DNA of 64,000 nucleotides. It comes from Candidatus Moraniibacteriota bacterium. Its GTDB lineage: Bacteria > Patescibacteriota > Minisyncoccia > Moranbacterales > DUUL01. Shown piece after piece: positions 2,595 through 38,910 of the stretch. The stretch is from the NCBI GenBank assembly GCA_041596615.1, contig JBFHIG010000006.1:145-64144 (forward strand), written 5' to 3'. Made by a program: the position numbers and the translations under genes. Each line of letters opens with the position of its first letter. Position 1 is the first letter of the stretch. The notes beneath the pieces are model-generated. The model saw only the letters and a program-made list of their open reading frames with translations, was not told where the DNA came from and made no database searches.

Positions 2595-3359
2595 ATGTCC
2601 ATGAAAGACCTTATTTTTAAAGTTAAAATAGATAACCACAAGCGACAAAGATTGGAAAAAATAATCAAAGGAACGCTTAAAAAAGGGAGAAATTTTTCAA
2701 AGTTGCCAATTTGTTTCGCAACAATAAACCCAGAGATTCTACTGAAAGCTAGGGATAATTCTGAATATAGAAAGATTCTAAATGAGTTTGATTTGCGAAT
2801 TGTTGATGGGTTTGGTATAACACTCTATTCTTTTCTTTTCGGAAGAGGAATTAAGCATAGAACCCCTGGAGCGGATTTGGCTAGAATCATCCTAGAAGAA
2901 GGAATGCAAAACAAACTAAGAATTTCCTTTATAATAAATAAAGAGGGACTTAGTTCCAAAAAAGAATTAATTTTATTTTTAGAGAAAGAATTTGGCAAGA
3001 AAAGGTTGTGCAATTGTGAAATATATGCAACTAATAAAGATGTGCAAGGCAGATTGAAAATAAGGAAAGATACCCAGGTTCTTTTTGTTGGTCTTGGAGC
3101 GCCAAAACAAGAAATGTTAATTCAGGGCATTAAAGATAAATTGCCAGAATTAAGAATGGCGATTGGTGTGGGAGGGACTTTTGATTATTGGACAAACAAA
3201 AGGAAAAGAGCGCCGAAGATAATGAGGAAGCTGGGATTTGAATGGCTGTGGAGATTATTAATTTTGCGCGGTTATACAATGAAAAAAGCTAGAATAAAGA
3301 GAGTCCTAGAGGCAACTTTTAGGTTTCCTTTAAAATATATTCTTGACAAATCAGAATAA
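2595..3359 (+). CDS. WecB/TagA/CpsF family glycosyltransferase
   Basis: Segments TINPEILL, RIVDGFGI, FVGLGAPKQEMLI, GVGGTFDYW and GFEWLWRL match the TagA/WecG family pattern. Confidence 0.8.
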   Translation: MSMKDLIFKVKIDNHKRQRLEKIIKGTLKKGRNFSKLPICFATINPEILLKARDNSEYRKILNEFDLRIVDGFGITLYSFLFGRGIKHRTPGADLARIILEEGMQNKLRISFIINKEGLSSKKELILFLEKEFGKKRLCNCEIYATNKDVQGRLKIRKDTQVLFVGLGAPKQEMLIQGIKDKLPELRMAIGVGGTFDYWTNKRKRAPKIMRKLGFEWLWRLLILRGYTMKKARIKRVLEATFRFPLKYILDKSE

Positions 3360-7750: not shown

Positions 7751-7850
7751 CTTTATTTAAGCCAATTTGAAGGCATAACCAATCAACTTCCAACTTCAAA
7801 GCGCTTAGAACTCAATTTTGAGCCTCGTTTTTTGGCTTAATTAAGGCATT
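7751..7850 (+). repeat. left copy of the prophage-bounding direct repeat (putative attL; identical core 7795-7850)
   Basis: 7751-7850 aligns with 38811-38910. The first 44 bp carry 7 mismatches and the last 56 bp are identical. Sequence diverges immediately after both copies. Confidence 0.75.
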
Positions 7851-8047: not shown

Positions 8048-8100
8048 CGTCGCATAACTAGATAAAGTCAGACCAAAAACACAATTTAAAGAAAACGTAA

Positions 8101-8127
8101 ACACGTCAGAAATGACGTGTTTTTTTG
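8101..8127 (+). terminator. intrinsic terminator
   Basis: ACACGTCA-GAAA-TGACGTGT (8-bp stem) followed by T7. Confidence 0.7.
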
Positions 8128-8186
8128 TACATCTAATTATTATTTTAAATTGATTGTTCGTGGGTGTTTCCAATCACAACAAATCG

Positions 8187-8864
8187 ATGAGAAAAATTAA
8201 AAAGTGGATTACGAAGCAAATTAAAAAAATGATGTTGAAGTTGAAAAACTGGATCATCAAAAAAATTAAAAAGGCATTTGAATCATTTAACGGATTCATT
8301 GCAAAGCAGACGTGGATTATCACATTATTCGCGTTAATCGGCGGGGGTTATGTTCTTTATTTATCAGGAAGCGTTTTTGTTCCTTATGTTGGACAGATGT
8401 TAGATGAAAAATTCACAAAAGTGATCATCATAGAAAATCCAACAATCAGAGAAGCTCATGCAGAGGAAGGGGAAACAATAGAAACAATCATTGAAGATGT
8501 GACGGAGGAAGTTATTCCAGAAACATCGTTAATCGAAGAGATTTCTAAAATCTTCCCAGAAGAGCCAGAAACGGCTATAGCAATCTTTAAAGCAGAAAGT
8601 GGTCTAAGTCTTAATGCAAAGGGTTGGAACTGTAGGTATAGCATAAATGGAACTGTGGTTAGCAAAGCCTGCAACCCAGAAGACAGACAAAATGCTTGGT
8701 CAGTTGATTGTGGAATAGCTCAAATTAATATTCCTGGAAAAGAATGTTCAAAAGAATTGCTAGGTTTAGATAAAAATCTTGAATTGGCAAGGGAAAAATA
8801 TCAACAAAGAGGATGGCACCCATGGACTGCTTATAAAAATAATTCATATAAAAAGTTTTTATAA
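8187..8864 (+). CDS. phage lytic transglycosylase / lysozyme-like (SLT domain) protein with N-terminal membrane anchor
   Basis: AIAIFKAESGLSLNA ... VDCGIAQINI resembles the SLT/goose-lysozyme-like catalytic region (Glu-Ser). The ATG at 8187 is preferred over the listed TTG at 8154. Confidence 0.65.
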   Translation: MRKIKKWITKQIKKMMLKLKNWIIKKIKKAFESFNGFIAKQTWIITLFALIGGGYVLYLSGSVFVPYVGQMLDEKFTKVIIIENPTIREAHAEEGETIETIIEDVTEEVIPETSLIEEISKIFPEEPETAIAIFKAESGLSLNAKGWNCRYSINGTVVSKACNPEDRQNAWSVDCGIAQINIPGKECSKELLGLDKNLELAREKYQQRGWHPWTAYKNNSYKKFL

Positions 8865-11665: not shown

Positions 11666-11896
11666 ATGTCAGAAGAATTTAATTTCAGTGAAGCATTAGT
11701 ACATTTAAAAAATGGTAGATCACTTTCGAGGAGCGGATGGAACGGCAAAAATCAATTCATTAAAGCTCAATTCCCAGATGAGAATTCAAAAATGAATTTG
11801 CCTTATATCTACATCTCAAATGTAGATAGTAAATTGGTTCCATGGATAGCAAGCCAAGGAGACATATTTGCTGAAGATTGGTTTGTAATTGAATAG
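11666..11896 (+). CDS. DUF2829-family protein (Tad2-like candidate signalling-nucleotide sponge)
   Basis: FSEALVHLKNGRSLSRSGWNGK ... PDENSKMNLPYIYI ... LVPWIASQGDIFAEDWFVIE follows the DUF2829 pattern (F-x-EAL-x2-LK-x-G, R-x-GW, PW-x-x-SQ-x-D-x-x-AEDW) end to end. Confidence 0.7.
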   Translation: MSEEFNFSEALVHLKNGRSLSRSGWNGKNQFIKAQFPDENSKMNLPYIYISNVDSKLVPWIASQGDIFAEDWFVIE

Positions 11897-11926: not shown

Positions 11927-12178
11927 ATGTCAGAAGGAATAACAACCGGAAGAATAATGACTTATGGTGAGGATGCTGTTGGTTTGAGCTTCAACCCAGG
12001 AGGAAATCCAAAAGTTGATAAAGTTAAAAAGCTATACGCTGAAATCATTGACCTTTTAAATGAAGAACGAAATTGTAATGAGTCAGACAGACATCCAGAA
12101 AAGAACAGGTTGCTATCAGTGGCTATCACTGAAGCCCAAACAGCTCAAATGTGGGCAGTTAAGGGAATCACAAAATAA
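11927..12178 (+). CDS. small helical phage protein; possibly N4 gp49 / Sf6 gp66 (Acb2-like) family
   Basis: The pattern SFNPGGNPKVDKVKKLYAEIIDLL ... LLSVAITEAQTAQMWAVKGITK matches my recollection of a very widespread small phage family. The family name is not certain without an HMM search. Confidence 0.35.
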   Translation: MSEGITTGRIMTYGEDAVGLSFNPGGNPKVDKVKKLYAEIIDLLNEERNCNESDRHPEKNRLLSVAITEAQTAQMWAVKGITK

Positions 12179-12204: not shown

Positions 12205-12552
12205 ATGAATGAAGAAGCATCAATTGAGTGTGAGTGTGATGGTCCTAGTCTGAGAGATTCATATAGACAAAATAAACAGCCAGGGTCAACTGGATGCACA
12301 AAGCAAACAGAGGGTTCAGTCGTTTCAATTCTATTGGAGGATTTAAACAGAGAAACTTCATCACTAAACAAAGATGTGACTAGATTGCATGATAGACTTT
12401 CACCAGTTATGAATGAATTTCCAAAAGAGGAACTCAATTCTAGTCTTACAAATAGTGATTCCCCTGTAGGAAGAGAATTAGTAGATAGAATAGCGGAAGT
12501 TAGGGAAGCAAGAAGAGAAATAGATTACATCATTTCTACACTAGAAATTTAG
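12205..12552 (+). CDS. hypothetical phage protein
   Basis: 115-aa ORF with no recognisable motif. Confidence 0.45.
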   Translation: MNEEASIECECDGPSLRDSYRQNKQPGSTGCTKQTEGSVVSILLEDLNRETSSLNKDVTRLHDRLSPVMNEFPKEELNSSLTNSDSPVGRELVDRIAEVREARREIDYIISTLEI

Positions 12553-12616
12553 TTTATTATTTCATCTCCACTCATTATGTGGGTGGGATTGAGTTAATAA
12601 GGTTCGTTCAAAATTT

Positions 12617-12804
12617 GTTAGTAGATAAAGGGGGTGGCGGAAAATAAGACGCATGAGGTTATAGCACCAGGACTTGCAAGACTGGTCGCCAGATAGTGTA
12701 TATATCTAGGTAAATTGTGGTAGTAAGGCTGGTAACCGAGCACCGTAAGGAAAACAAACCCACGTGCAAGAGTGAAAGTCTCTTGCTCCCCTTTATCTAC
12801 TAAC
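12617..12804 (+). ncRNA. candidate structured RNA / cis-regulatory leader (alternatively an inverted-repeat-bounded DNA segment)
   Basis: A perfect 17-bp closing stem (12617-12633 with 12788-12804) encloses 154 nt that is visibly GC-richer than its surroundings. Nested local helices: TGGCG/CGCCA 12635-12639/12687-12691, ACCAG/CTGGT 12666-12670/12682-12686, AGATA/TATCT 12691-12695/12703-12707, GTGG/CCAC 12717-12720/12760-12763, GCAAGAG/CTCTTGC 12766-12772/12780-12786. An SD and ATG follow 10-20 nt downstream. Confidence 0.45.
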
Positions 12805-12825
12805 AAAACCAAAAAGGAGGTAAAA

Positions 12826-13071
12826 ATGCGACAAGTGATCATCACCAACTGTTTGATCTGCAAGGGAAATTCTCTCAGCTGTTACGATTCAGAACGTGAA
12901 CCACGCAAACTGTATTGTAATAACTGCACACTCCCACGATGTCCAATCCCAACAGAAAACTTTTCATCTGGATTCTGTGATGAGCATTTTAATGGACAAC
13001 TCCAAAGGAAGATTATCGAACAAGGAAATGACTCGGAAAGAGTCAAACGCATCAAGGCAATGATGAGATAG
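12826..13071 (+). CDS. small Cys-rich (zinc-binding-like) phage protein
   Basis: 81 aa from the ATG at 12826, with a perfect SD (AAAGGAGG) upstream. It carries seven Cys plus His in C-x2-C-type spacing. The listed start at 12772 lies inside the structured element and is unlikely. Confidence 0.6.
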   Translation: MRQVIITNCLICKGNSLSCYDSEREPRKLYCNNCTLPRCPIPTENFSSGFCDEHFNGQLQRKIIEQGNDSERVKRIKAMMR

Positions 13072-13273
13072 CTAACACGCTATTAAAACCAATGAGGGGC
13101 GTAAAAAACCCCTCTCAAAAAATAATAATAAATTTAAAAGTAAAGATGAAAAAAATTATAAAGTATTTTATCTACAATAAGCAGGCTAGCGTAGTTCTTA
13201 ACATACTAACAATTTTAGTTACTATACTAAATTTATTTATTATCTTTTATATTTAATAGCTTTCAAATATAAA

Positions 13274-13900
13274 ATGGCAAAGTACACACGAAGAATAAAA
13301 ACATTTGGAGGACAGCAAGCGACGGTCCCACTCAAAAATAAAAAGGACGTAGAAAACATCCAGAATTATTTTTTGAGAAAAAGGGAGTTAGCAAAAACCA
13401 AAGCTAAAAGATATCAAGCTGATCGCAATTGGATGTTGTGTAAATTGGGATTTAATACAGCTTTCAGGGCAGAGGATTTATTGCAATTACGAGTTAAAGA
13501 TGTTGAAAACGGATATATCTCAATGAAAGAATTGAAGACAAAAAAAGCCCAAAATTACAAGATGCGAAAGGAACTAAAAGAAGAGGTGTTGGAATATAAA
13601 AAGAGAAATGGGCTGACGTCCTATGATTACATGTTTACAGGCCAGAAGAGCAAAACCATGGCCATCACAAGGCAACAAGCTGACACAATCCTTAGTGAAG
13701 CAAGAGAAGGGGTTAAATTGGGACAAAGATTTTCACTCCATTCAATGAGGAAAACTTATGGGTATCATTTTTATAAAAAAACTAAGAATATCCTAACTCT
13801 TCAGAGAATGTTTAATCATGATAGTCCGATAGTGACGACATTATATATCTGTTGGGGAAGTGATGATATGGATGTAGCAAGGAATGAAATATATCTATAA
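13274..13900 (+). CDS. small tyrosine recombinase (phage integrase family, catalytic domain only)
   Basis: Catalytic signature: AFRAEDL (Arg), ELKTKK (Lys), HSMRKTYGY (H-x-x-R), FNHDSPIVTTLYI (His ... Tyr). There is no N-terminal SAM-like/arm-binding domain. Confidence 0.75.
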   Translation: MAKYTRRIKTFGGQQATVPLKNKKDVENIQNYFLRKRELAKTKAKRYQADRNWMLCKLGFNTAFRAEDLLQLRVKDVENGYISMKELKTKKAQNYKMRKELKEEVLEYKKRNGLTSYDYMFTGQKSKTMAITRQQADTILSEAREGVKLGQRFSLHSMRKTYGYHFYKKTKNILTLQRMFNHDSPIVTTLYICWGSDDMDVARNEIYL

Positions 13901-14052
13901 TTTACGAGAATTAGAAAGTATGCAGATTTTTAAAAAAGAGAATTATCAAAATAATCTAAAAAGCCGATTGTATAGGGATTAAAAATCAAAGCAATCGGAA
14001 AATAAAAATCTTACAGTCTTAGGTGTTATGTAATATTAATTGATAAAAAATA

Positions 14053-14373
14053 ATGAACTTAGGAAAAAGAAAACAAGAGCAAAGAGAAAAAAAGGGAAAC
14101 TATAAAACTAGAACAAAAAATATTGATATAAATCAATTAAAGAGGTTAGGGGAAAAATACAAATTCGTTGTATCTGGTAAAGAGTTTAAGCACAACCAAC
14201 CACTGTTTGCGATAGTAAACCACGACAAAAAAATATCCACTATTTACTTTTTTATAAAATATCACAAGCAAGAATTTAATCTAAAATATTCCTGCAACAA
14301 CAAGGTGAAAAAAGGAGTAGAGTTAATTATGAGCAGTTTACCAATGCCAGATATAAATAAATTTATAAAATAA
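14053..14373 (+). CDS. hypothetical basic phage protein
   Basis: 106-aa ORF with a Lys-rich N-terminus. Confidence 0.45.
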   Translation: MNLGKRKQEQREKKGNYKTRTKNIDINQLKRLGEKYKFVVSGKEFKHNQPLFAIVNHDKKISTIYFFIKYHKQEFNLKYSCNNKVKKGVELIMSSLPMPDINKFIK

Positions 14374-14380
14374 TAAACCT

Positions 14381-14815
14381 ATGAAAACAAAATTAGAAGA
14401 ACTAAGAAAAGAAATAATTAAGAGTAATCCTGATATAGTAGAATTGAAATTGTTCGAATGTGAAGTTTATTGTGAGCAGTGTTGGGAAGATTCTAATGGT
14501 AATTACCACGATGAATATGGAATTATAATAAAAAATGACCTAAATGTTGATAAAGAAACTGGTTTAGAAATACAAATTGCTGGTGGTGGAAGAATTTTAT
14601 ATGGAGAGCCTACTGAAATCATAGGAAGAGATATAAATCTGGAAGATATTCTAAAATGCTACAAAGAAGTTTTTAGGAAAAATTATGGTGGAATATTTAG
14701 GACAGAAGCAAATTTACTGGAAGTATTATCAATTTGGGAACTAGGTAAACCTCTCCACGAGCAATCAGAAGCAACTATTAACGCACTGCATAATTTAATT
14801 TGTAATAGAAAGTGA
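14381..14815 (+). CDS. hypothetical phage protein
   Basis: 144-aa ORF with a C-x2-C pair near the N-terminus. No family recognised. Confidence 0.5.
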   Translation: MKTKLEELRKEIIKSNPDIVELKLFECEVYCEQCWEDSNGNYHDEYGIIIKNDLNVDKETGLEIQIAGGGRILYGEPTEIIGRDINLEDILKCYKEVFRKNYGGIFRTEANLLEVLSIWELGKPLHEQSEATINALHNLICNRK

Positions 14816-36516: not shown

Positions 36517-36571
36517 AGTTGGAAATATGAGAGCTTTTAAATATTGAAAATGGCTTGCATAAACTAAAAAA

Positions 36572-36610
36572 ACAGGTAAAAGTCAATAACCTTGACTTTT
36601 ACCTGTTTTT
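36572..36610 (+). terminator. strong intrinsic terminator ending the late operon
   Basis: A perfect 15-bp stem ACAGGTAAAAGTCAA / TTGACTTTTACCTGT with a 5-nt loop and a T-run. Confidence 0.8.
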
Positions 36611-36733
36611 GTGTTCTATTGACACTTTTAATTTATTTTGTAAATATAAATAAAGAAACTCAAAAAGAGAAGTTGTTCTTTTAAAAAATAGTTATGAGGA
36701 GTTTACCTAAACATAACAAATATATACAAAAAA

Positions 36734-37045
36734 TTACATTATCATTTTGCCATGGTTGGAGTTTGCTGTAGTACATAAAACAAAATGACCAGACAACTAA
36801 CAAAAAGATATAGGAGATATAAAAATAAAAATTATCCCGGTAGCGGATGGATAGACAGCTATATTAAAGCATTTATATTTCAAGAAATTAAAGCAAACTG
36901 TGACCGCGAAAAAGAAAGAAAGAAAGAAAAAGCATGAAGTAATGAAAGATAAAAGGATGCAGTAACATCCTTTTATAAGAAAACCTTAACAATGTTATAA
37001 ATTAATATCTACTCATTCACTAACCATGGTAAAATGATAATGTAA
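36734..37045. repeat. 24-bp inverted repeats (23/24) bounding a 264-bp segment
   Basis: TTACATTATCATTTTGCCATGGTT (36734-36757) against the reverse complement of AACCATGGTAAAATGATAATGTAA (37022-37045), with one mismatch. Confidence 0.8.
36785..36937 (+). CDS. 50-aa basic ORF inside the inverted-repeat-bounded segment (coding status uncertain)
   Basis: Read by hand: MTRQLTKRYRRYKNKNYPGSGWIDSYIKAFIFQEIKANCDREKERKKEKA. There is no SD. An AAAGGATG/CATCCTTT hairpin follows at 36952-36973. Confidence 0.25.
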   Translation: MTRQLTKRYRRYKNKNYPGSGWIDSYIKAFIFQEIKANCDREKERKKEKA

Positions 37046-37159: not shown

Positions 37160-37353
37160 GCAAAGCTATCTATTAAATGATAGGTATCAATTAAAAATTC
37201 ATAGCAACTTGTGTCCGTCAGGACAGTGCCGAAAGGTATTTTGGGAAGACAAGTGGTTTTGTGATATACTTATAACAGACAGAAATTTTATTCAAAACAA
37301 AATTCTGTTATTCTATCTATTTTATTATAGATAGTTTGTAAAAGTCGCTCATT

Positions 37354-37395
37354 AGCCGAAAGTTTCCCAACTGACGGCAGTGGGCGGCTTTTTTT
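37354..37395 (+). terminator. intrinsic terminator abutting the integrase start codon
   Basis: AGCCG...CGGCT forms the outer stem and CCCA(A)CTG-ACGG-CAGTGGG the inner stem. T7 ends 2 nt before the ATG at 37398. Confidence 0.55.
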
Positions 37396-37397
37396 AC

Positions 37398-38261
37398 ATG
37401 AACAAAGAAATTGAAAACTACTTAGCGTGGAAAGGGACTTATGCAACTAGGGCTTGTAATAATTATCGCATTTGGTTGGAAAGATTTAATAACAGGACCA
37501 AAAAATCAATTGGGGATGTCAACATCGACGATATAATCAAATTTAATTCTTATTTAAAAACAAAATTTCAACCAACCACAATCCAATATGCAACAATAAT
37601 CATCAAGAATTTTTTTGAGTTCCATAAGCTCCAAGGGGTGTCTTGCATCTCTCCAAGCATCATCAAAGTTCCGAGAGCAACAGCCTGCTCATATCAGCCA
37701 ATAGTTAAGGACGAGTGCCTTAGATTGCTATCAGAAATTGATACAAGCTCTTTTGTTGGGCTACAAAGAAATATTATGGTTAGGATTCTTTATGAGACGG
37801 GGATTCGTGTAAGTGAATTAACTGATCTCAATGTTAGTTCAATTAATACCTCAAATAAATCTGCAATTATATCAACAAAAAAAACTACTCAAAAAAGAAG
37901 GATAGTGTGGGGAAGTGAGACCAATTCCCTATTATGTGATTTTATAAAAATAAGAAAAAGTATAAATACAAATCCGGCACTTTTTATTGGAACAAAGGCA
38001 GGTGGGGAAGTAAGTAACAGAATAACAACAAGATCTGTTCAACGGACAATAAAATTGTTATGTGAGAAAGCTGAAATAGTATCAAAAATAACTCCGCATA
38101 GTTTTCGCCATGGTAAAGCTCACAGAATTTTAGAATCCGGAGGAAACCCAAAAGATGTCCAGGCAATACTTGGACATGTAAATCCAGTATCAAGTTTTGT
38201 TTATTTGCAATGGAACGACATGGAATTTGAAAAAAGGGCCAGAATGTTCGTAGAAAACTAG
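37398..38261 (+). CDS. tyrosine integrase (XerC/XerD-like, with N-terminal SAM-like domain)
   Basis: ETGIRVSELTDL (Arg), HSFRHGKAH (H-x-x-R) and LGHVNPVSSFVYL (His ... Tyr). It is the terminal gene next to the right repeat. The ATG at 37398 is preferred over the listed GTG at 37380, which lies inside the terminator. Confidence 0.85.
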   Translation: MNKEIENYLAWKGTYATRACNNYRIWLERFNNRTKKSIGDVNIDDIIKFNSYLKTKFQPTTIQYATIIIKNFFEFHKLQGVSCISPSIIKVPRATACSYQPIVKDECLRLLSEIDTSSFVGLQRNIMVRILYETGIRVSELTDLNVSSINTSNKSAIISTKKTTQKRRIVWGSETNSLLCDFIKIRKSINTNPALFIGTKAGGEVSNRITTRSVQRTIKLLCEKAEIVSKITPHSFRHGKAHRILESGGNPKDVQAILGHVNPVSSFVYLQWNDMEFEKRARMFVEN

Positions 38262-38290
38262 ATTATTGGTATATTTCTGCACTACCATAA

Positions 38291-38370
38291 AAGGCTTAGT
38301 TAAGCCAAAAAACGAGGCTCAAAATTGAGTTCTAAGCGCCTAAATAATAAAAGTTGATTAGTTATACCTT
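38291..38370 (-). repeat. third, inverted copy of the att-repeat sequence immediately after the integrase gene
   Basis: The reverse complement contains GCGCTTAGAACTCAATTTTGAGCCTCGTTTTTTGGCTTAA (40 bp identical to both bounding repeats) plus a diverged ATAAC(T/C)AATCAACTT part. Confidence 0.75.
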
Positions 38371-38416
38371 TAAAATACTATAACTAAGGGCTTAATCTGG
38401 CATTTTGATTAAATTG

Positions 38417-38810: not shown

Positions 38811-38910
38811 CTTTATTTAAGGCATTTTAAGGGCATAACCAATCAACTTGCGATTTCAAAGCGCTTAGAACTCAATTTTGAGCCTCGTTTTTTGGCTTAA
38901 TTAAGGCATT
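38811..38910 (+). repeat. right copy of the prophage-bounding direct repeat (putative attR; identical core 38855-38910)
   Basis: See 7751-7850. The offset between the two copies is 31,060 bp. Confidence 0.75.

Follow-up and report, generated by a model that had tools for sequence, protein, structure and literature searches.

The window analysed here is a stretch of 64,000 nucleotides (nt) of contig JBFHIG010000006.1 from a Candidatus Moraniibacteriota bacterium; in the prophage that it contains, a 194-bp element is closed by a perfect 20-bp inverted repeat (12614-12633 and 12788-12807) whose arms stand 154 bp apart. We confirmed that the repeat is real and far from chance, and the element looks more like a feature of the DNA than a folded RNA. 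Its leading explanation, to which we assign a probability of roughly 0.3, is an invertible DNA switch that would be worked by a tyrosine recombinase. A DNA-level invertible segment was among the readings offered by the initial annotation; the anatomy of the locus fits this reading best, whereas a sister phage and a scan of the recombinase's family weaken it, and it stays unproven.

The left arm of the repeat, TTTGTTAGTAGATAAAGGGG (12614-12633), is Watson-Crick complementary at 20 of 20 positions to the right arm, CCCCTTTATCTACTAACAAA (12788-12807), which is its exact complement. A 17-bp pairing had been reported (12617-12633 with 12788-12804); it is present and forms the core of the longer one. 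Between the arms lies the candidate invertible segment, a spacer of 154 bp at 12634-12787. From base composition, perfect 20-bp pairs no more than 1.5 kb apart are expected by chance about 4e-4 times per 64-kb window, and in the window shuffled 100 times with local composition kept, the maximum length of a perfect pair was 12-17 bp. At the scale of the loci scanned in this work (∼1 Mb) repeats of 15 bp can be reached by chance; those of 18 bp or more can not. The arms have no dyad symmetry of their own, and no third copy was present in the 64-kb window when up to 3 mismatches were tolerated, so that the repeat is unique there. Nor did we see a target-site duplication: the flanks, which end with GTTCAAAA on the left and begin with ACCAAAAA on the right, give no direct repeat abutting the arms.

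The spacer is GC-rich in comparison with its surroundings, as had been noticed at the outset: its GC content of 0.46 exceeds the 0.34 of the whole prophage and the 0.23-0.33 of intergenic stretches nearby and places it in the 98-99th percentile of 154-nt windows. The enrichment runs on beyond the element. The block 12600-13115 has a GC content of 0.41-0.46, and everything from the element to a hairpin at 13094-13114 looks compositionally foreign. An antisense open reading frame (ORF) of 81 aa spans the spacer; with zero homologues among 1.84 billion representative proteins, we rejected it as a genuine gene.

Considered as a single strand, the 188-nt stretch closed by the 17-bp core folds far better than its shuffles, and does so on both strands alike (z of -4.3 on the + strand and -4.9 on the - strand). 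With the arms taken away the signal is gone: the 154-nt spacer has z of -0.74 (+) and -0.40 (-), with 38 of 200 + strand shuffles at least as stable, and 70-nt windows across it range from -0.9 to +1.7 on the two strands. As the spacer thus folds like its shuffles, the apparent stability comes entirely from the repeat. The 20-bp stem contains no G-U pair and no mismatch and is equally stable on both strands; absence of G-U pairs is expected of DNA-level symmetry and is unusual for an RNA helix of 20 bp. A stem that is G-U-free and strand-symmetric, around an interior without a fold, points to constraint at the level of DNA rather than of RNA. Five nested helices had been drawn inside the element; they amount to what chance gives for such composition, and a CC-GUAA-GG tetraloop-like hairpin has a stem of merely 2 bp. 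Inside, only one local helix is stable, a hairpin of 7 bp with the sequence GCAAGAG-N7-CTCTTGC at the spacer's right end (12766-12786, + strand). Its energy is -9.8 kcal/mol when folded alone (centroid), the surrounding 71 nt have a z of -2.3, and the tail UCCCCUUUAUCU that follows it fails the terminator rule applied.

What favors the invertible switch is the agreement of the locus with three features by which such switches are recognized. Inverted repeats of ∼9-30 bp around a short non-coding segment (∼100-500 bp) have their counterpart in 20-bp arms around 154 bp. In position, the segment separates upstream transcription from the start of the gene that would be regulated: there is a hairpin on its upstream side and, on the other side, a Cys-rich ORF whose ATG follows the right arm by 18 nt. 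Finally, a competent recombinase is at hand, a 208-aa protein encoded on the same strand 466 bp downstream (13274-13900, + strand), with a second tyrosine recombinase at 37380-38261.

In such a switch a tyrosine recombinase would bind both arms, pair them and exchange strands within the repeats, an exchange that would flip the 154-bp spacer. The obvious candidate for the enzyme is the adjacent 208-aa recombinase, the prophage integrase at 37380-38261 being the second. Transcription into a unit made of the Cys-rich ORF and the recombinase gene would then be possible in one orientation and blocked in the other. Control could be exerted through a promoter inside the segment or, as at cwpV and flgB of Clostridioides difficile, at a stage after initiation, with the leader containing a terminator or a processing signal; recombination itself might keep the arms perfectly identical. 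Since the upstream gene block ends in a strong hairpin, the downstream genes plausibly need a signal that is inside the segment or is gated by it. For the inverted form the predicted junctions are GATAAAGGGG joined to AGCAAGAGACTTTC and TTATTTTCCGCCAC joined to CCCCTTTATC; strings diagnostic of the inverted junctions are GATAAAGGGG followed by AGCAAGAGAC and TTTTCCGCCAC followed by CCCCTTTATC. The junction of an empty site, which would instead speak for a mobile insert, would read GTTCAAAA followed by ACCAAAAAGG.

The 208-aa protein consists of a catalytic domain only (Pfam Phage_integrase, 5.5e-16; phrog_216, 1.7e-43). Its R65, H156, R159, H182 and Y191, corresponding to the catalytic Arg, the His-x-x-Arg, the His and the Tyr, are invariant in 32 family members, and with these residues intact the enzyme appears catalytically competent. 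The initial annotation had placed a small tyrosine recombinase ∼470 bp downstream of the element, which agrees with what we found. Full-length matches to models of the FimB/FimE type were weak (E of 1e-5), with 25.3 bits for PRK09870 against a cutoff of 221 and 24.5 bits for PRK09871 against 222; the protein shares the size and domain layout of FimB and FimE, yet judged by score it falls outside their family. Among solved structures, its nearest relatives are enzymes of the Xer type.

The family to which the 208-aa recombinase does belong is a large one. Its members were seen in >200 phages from GenBank, those of Streptococcus, Bacillus, Clostridium/Clostridioides and Listeria, and among the 600 GTDB-genome stretches listed at least 588 have one. 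Its genes usually stand next to regulators, with the packaging genes following, or form part of early operons. In the P0046 lineage (L126-L135) we observed that many assemblies, independent of one another, break at a hairpin, TCTCTCTAATC-N15-GATTAGAGAGA, ∼40-70 nt ahead of the start of the recombinase gene; in one variant of it, L130, the inner stem carries a compensatory double change, from CTTA/TAAG to CTTC/GAAG.

Several observations weigh against inversion, and the family itself provides a number of them. Widespread as it is, it occupies conserved early or late-regulatory slots without repeats of this kind, and in a scan for perfect repeats over ∼140 related loci (roughly 1 Mb) most loci had none, so that repeat and recombinase do not generally occur together. 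The frequency of repeats around the family was about one per 80 kb and thus no higher than in a control of unrelated viral DNA (∼40 kb, one phage), where a single perfect 15-bp repeat with a 257-bp spacer was found. In favor of a switch, perfect repeats placed like that of the window do exist in two prophages with homologous recombinases: L007 has arms of 22 bp and a spacer of 147 bp, and L038 has arms of 15 bp and a spacer of 122 bp. Both are intergenic, stop 26-30 nt short of a gene start and lie ∼1.1 kb upstream of the recombinase; however, no motif is common to the arms of these two, of the window element, of L020 and of a second repeat in the window.

In distant family members long repeats directly follow the recombinase gene (L082, L087, L106 and L115). 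In four loci (L082, 4539-4682; L087, 4580-4840; L102, 2191-2342; L121, 3789-3904) the motif ATGTnACA / TTGTGTTAC brackets a promoter region near or after the recombinase gene, and a 17-nt block, ACACAATATAAGATATG, is common to a Peptostreptococcus canis prophage and the Bacillus cereus phage phBC6A52. For most such repeats the motif clusters are probably conserved late-promoter or regulator sites, which also speaks against inversion. Having been resolved into shared clusters of regulator motifs, the post-recombinase repeats of L082, L087, L102 and L121 were set aside as candidate invertible segments; L106 and L115 were dropped as well, their interiors aligning equally well in both orientations and being uninformative. 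Overall, these comparisons suggest no specific association between the recombinase family and repeat-bounded segments.

A further objection comes from the closest relative of the recombinase, P0002 (83% identity), which is encoded on a 29-kb Logan contig, L037, syntenic with the prophage of the window. This sister phage keeps the recombinase, and the 10 kb examined of its contig contain no inverted repeat that reaches 12 bp. From the Tad2-like gene to the recombinase its sequence is unrelated to that of the window; the stretch holds a tRNA-Met(CAT) gene (3058-3130), which occupies the slot corresponding to the element, and a small zinc-ribbon ORF. With the content of the slot changed and the recombinase retained, the slot is a site for variable cargo, and the recombinase can do without the element.

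Apart from the window, we saw the element in one place only: the 1,848-bp Logan contig L035 (SRR29257459), which is identical to positions 12587-14434. The only other assembly of the locus thus has the same orientation, and no inverted copy was seen, a point that again does not favor inversion. The ends of L035 (12587 and 14434) were considered as possible evidence of inversion and discarded; the left end is off the branch point expected in a k=31 graph, and no inference was drawn. Two properties of the segment itself do not favor a switch either: no consensus promoter or terminator was evident in either orientation (the present one was scanned, the inverted sequence was read by eye), and in AT-rich DNA an invertible promoter would not usually have a GC-rich interior. 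A rightward promoter had been proposed inside the segment, TTGCAA-N17-TGTATA; it fails the consensus scan. In the present orientation no consensus sigma-70-type promoter and no intrinsic terminator was called anywhere in the element, although the promoter rules of the host may differ.

Among the other explanations, one could think of the element as acting in RNA: in read-through transcripts from the early or accessory operon the 20-bp stem would be cut by RNase III, separating the upstream mRNA from that of the Cys-rich ORF and recombinase, and either releasing a 154-nt small RNA or setting mRNA stability. The neighbouring genes are all on the + strand and the region is probably transcribed; a perfect duplex of 20 bp is an RNase III substrate, a GC-rich non-coding interior is a classic hint of structured RNA, a + strand-biased hairpin stands just upstream, and the sister phage has an RNA gene, that of tRNA-Met, in the corresponding slot. 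We nevertheless hold this explanation to be unlikely. Besides the interior that folds like shuffles and the stem that lacks G-U pairs, mismatches and strand asymmetry, the lack of a called promoter or terminator means that nothing frames the element as a transcription unit of its own. The search with Infernal against Rfam that had been suggested gave no match in version 15 at gathering thresholds in the whole window, and none even at E<=10 in 12450-12950; tRNA and tmRNA identities were ruled out by ARAGORN, which found neither in the window. The multi-stem junction RNA initially envisaged, be it a riboswitch-like leader or a free-standing non-coding RNA, is not borne out by these results.

Relatives that could have provided covariation evidence were not found either. 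By blastn the element had no match in 50,697 GenBank phage records and 72,556 PLSDB plasmids, and nhmmer together with blastn detected no relative in the retrieved loci that were searched; the interior 20/21-mers had no match in metagenome and viral collections. The pair of repeat cores (12+12 nt, with a gap of 140-170 nt) was absent from 185,579 GTDB species-representative genomes and from JGI metagenomes, and the exact 17-mer occurred in IMG/VR three times only, each time by chance inside an unrelated coding region. With no homologue in the collections searched, there is no evidence of covariation for an RNA. The Cys-rich ORF has a relative, with 69% identity by tblastn, on the viral contig L031, where its context is different and no such repeat or leader precedes it. 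A resemblance of the left arm to the L031 leader was rejected as not significant (44 of 300 shuffles score equally).

The same searches bear on the possibility that the element is a miniature inverted-repeat transposable element (MITE) or other foreign insert: a small non-autonomous mobile element, or the remnant of one, which came with 20-bp termini, landed in a variable region and has no dedicated function. Its perfect terminal repeats, a total of 194 bp and the absence of an ORF are as they should be for a MITE; moreover, its composition is unlike that of the surrounding intergenic DNA, it is missing from the sister phage and from upstream of the L031 homologue of the Cys-rich ORF, and it sits in a region that differs wholly between related phages. 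Several findings make this origin doubtful. No target-site duplication flanks the arms, no transposase is nearby, the element occurs only once in the window even with up to 3 mismatches tolerated, and neither the core pair in the GTDB representatives and JGI metagenomes nor the 17-mer in IMG/VR, with its chance coding matches, revealed further copies.

The element may also have no function, being a recent mutational product (a replication template switch or a recombination scar) in a horizontally acquired cassette and not yet decayed. A singleton lacking homologues, a fold signal and any recognisable regulatory signal would look like this; the whole block 12600-13115 is foreign in composition, and a recent copying event yields perfect identity of the arms. 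On the other side, template switches of 20 bp across 154 bp are rare, the placement between the upstream hairpin and the next Shine-Dalgarno sequence, beside a recombinase, looks organised, and the copy in L035, coming from another run and being identical, shows that the element is at least stably inherited. An origin by accident is one that we regard as rather improbable.

Still less probable are paired operators, with the arms binding a phage regulator and looping out the 154 bp to control the downstream genes. The inverted ATGTnACA / TTGTGTTAC motifs of distant members of the recombinase family, which clearly bracket promoter regions, provide a precedent; however, identity over 20 bp is rare among operators, the arms are devoid of internal dyads and of a third copy in the prophage at up to 3 mismatches, and they have no motif in common with the other elements. 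Least likely of all, and suggested by the anti-defence cluster next to the element and by the tRNA-Met in the slot of the sister phage, is that the 154-nt interior is an undescribed phage small RNA with no Rfam relatives, excised by RNase III from an early transcript and possibly acting as a counter-defence or host-manipulation factor.

The window is a bacterial contig with host genes at its ends (M16 peptidase, AI-2E transporter and GluRS at one end; P-type ATPase, PurC and others at the other). The prophage is ∼31 kb long and is bounded by direct repeats of ∼90 bp near 7760-7850 and 38820-38910. The element belongs to its accessory region, which has the early genes on one side and those for packaging and head on the other. 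In order, we saw a Tad2-like gene (11666-11896; PF11195, 7e-23), an Acb2/Tad1-like gene of the hairpin-domain type (11927-12178; PF24729, 2e-11), an orphan 115-aa ORF for which no relative was found, a hairpin, the element, the Cys-rich ORF, a GC-rich hairpin and the gene of the small recombinase. Judged by their family matches, the two adjacent Tad2-like and Acb2/Tad1-like genes are a predicted anti-defence cluster directly upstream.

The first hairpin (12553-12601, + strand) stands directly 3′ of the stop codon of the 115-aa ORF and has a minimum free energy of -21.1 kcal/mol with a z of -4.3, being weaker on the - strand. No clean U-run follows it; it probably ends or stabilises the transcript of the upstream accessory genes, a terminator role being one that we infer. 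It is the sole clearly RNA-like feature nearby, and it is outside the element. Past the right arm, as the initial annotation had stated, a Shine-Dalgarno sequence and an ATG open the 81-aa ORF: AAGGAGG is found at 12814-12820 (+ strand), 6 nt beyond the arm and outside the repeat, and the ORF, which is Cys-rich and zinc-ribbon-like, runs from 12826 to 13071 (+ strand) as the first gene downstream. It has no family match in Pfam, PHROG, NCBIfam or PADLOC and no relative in the protein database, the L031 contig providing its sole tblastn relative. The GC-rich hairpin after it (13094-13114; -10.3 kcal/mol, z of -3.1) marks the end of the compositionally distinct block.

A second repeat-bounded segment had been pointed out upstream of the other recombinase, and it is indeed there: arms of 24 nt with one mismatch, at 36734-36757 and 37022-37045. 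The 264 bp between them, located between the lysis genes and the integrase, hold a basic ORF of 50 aa (36785-36937) and a hairpin; the exact arm is absent from IMG/VR. The integrase is XerC/D-like (37380-38261, 293 aa), with its start probably at the ATG at 37398. Just upstream of it the stretch 37185-37400 (+ strand) has a minimum free energy of -62 kcal/mol and a z of -6.1 and closes with a long GC-rich hairpin and a U7 tract; no Rfam match was obtained at E<=1, and the stretch could be a leader, an attenuator or a small RNA. After a lysis gene, at 36555-36619 (+ strand), there is a terminator-like hairpin with a sub-threshold match to the Streptococcus small RNA SpF43 (24.6 bits versus a gathering threshold of 70, E of 0.056), the match probably being due to the hairpin only.

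The direct repeats of ∼90 bp that flank the prophage (∼7760-7850 and 38813-38910) are probably attL and attR. A third copy, inverted and of the same ∼90 bp, is located at 38290-38387; its 40-bp perfect core (38300-38339 with 38861-38900) is arranged around a 425-nt stretch after the integrase. Outside the window, in the locus L117 of a metagenome-assembled genome from Clostridiales, a perfect AT-rich repeat of 22 bp (8095-8232) closes a GC-rich interior of 94 nt which is itself a long hairpin (minimum free energy of -67 kcal/mol, z of -9.0) and has no Rfam match. It may be a MITE or an RNA of unknown kind, and it is unlike the window element in having a structured interior where that of the window is unstructured.

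As it stands, the finding concerns a single unconserved element and is of modest interest; its main value is negative, in that the idea of a new structured RNA fails the standard tests. If inversion were true, the element would be a phase-variable switch on a prophage, beside anti-defence genes, and would put an accessory gene under stochastic ON/OFF control; it would also give a first function to a very common, uncharacterised family of small phage recombinases.

Comparison with known systems can begin with those closest to the other explanations. The RNase III processing stems of rRNA operons and of phage T7 early mRNA contain mismatches and G-U pairs, and they flank a structured RNA or a very short loop. 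Similar to them, the repeat of the window could form a long duplex from sequences flanking a segment of a polycistronic transcript; in contrast to them, its stem is perfect and its interior has no signal of structure. Bacterial MITEs such as the Correia elements and RUP are 100-200 bp long, ORF-less and bounded by terminal inverted repeats; their transcripts fold into a stem that RNase III can cleave, and they are multi-copy and flanked by target-site duplications. The window element is like them in size, in the absence of an ORF and in its terminal inverted repeats, whereas it shows neither extra copies nor a target-site duplication.

Returning to the invertible switch, we note that the fimS and RecV type is the one that the element resembles most, although its membership in that type is not established. 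In the fimS/FimB/FimE system of Escherichia coli, just as in the window, a recombinase of ∼200 aa without an N-terminal core-binding domain is encoded beside a repeat-bounded segment. The fimS repeats are of 9 bp, around 314 bp, with a clear promoter. Unlike FimB and FimE, the protein of the window scores ∼25 bits against a cutoff of ∼221 and is not a member, and, in another departure from fimS, its gene is downstream of the ORF that would be regulated.

The RecV switches of C. difficile differ from the window element in that their inversion has been demonstrated, whereas that of the window segment is a proposal; the gene for RecV is distant from the several sites at which the enzyme acts, and the repeats there are imperfect where those of the window are perfect. 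The flagellar switch among them, flgB, is chromosomal and controls surface structures, while the window element is located in the accessory region of a prophage, and the arms of the latter have no sequence similarity to the published repeat. In architecture the two are nevertheless strikingly alike. The flgB switch is a segment of 154 bp between 21-bp repeats, located in a 5′ leader and inverted by a tyrosine recombinase, and it acts after initiation and not by means of an internal promoter (PMC5386303). The segment is 154 bp long in both cases, with repeats of 20-21 bp, a position in the 5′ leader just upstream of a gene and a tyrosine recombinase, and the post-initiation action of the flgB switch matches the lack of a promoter in the element of the window.

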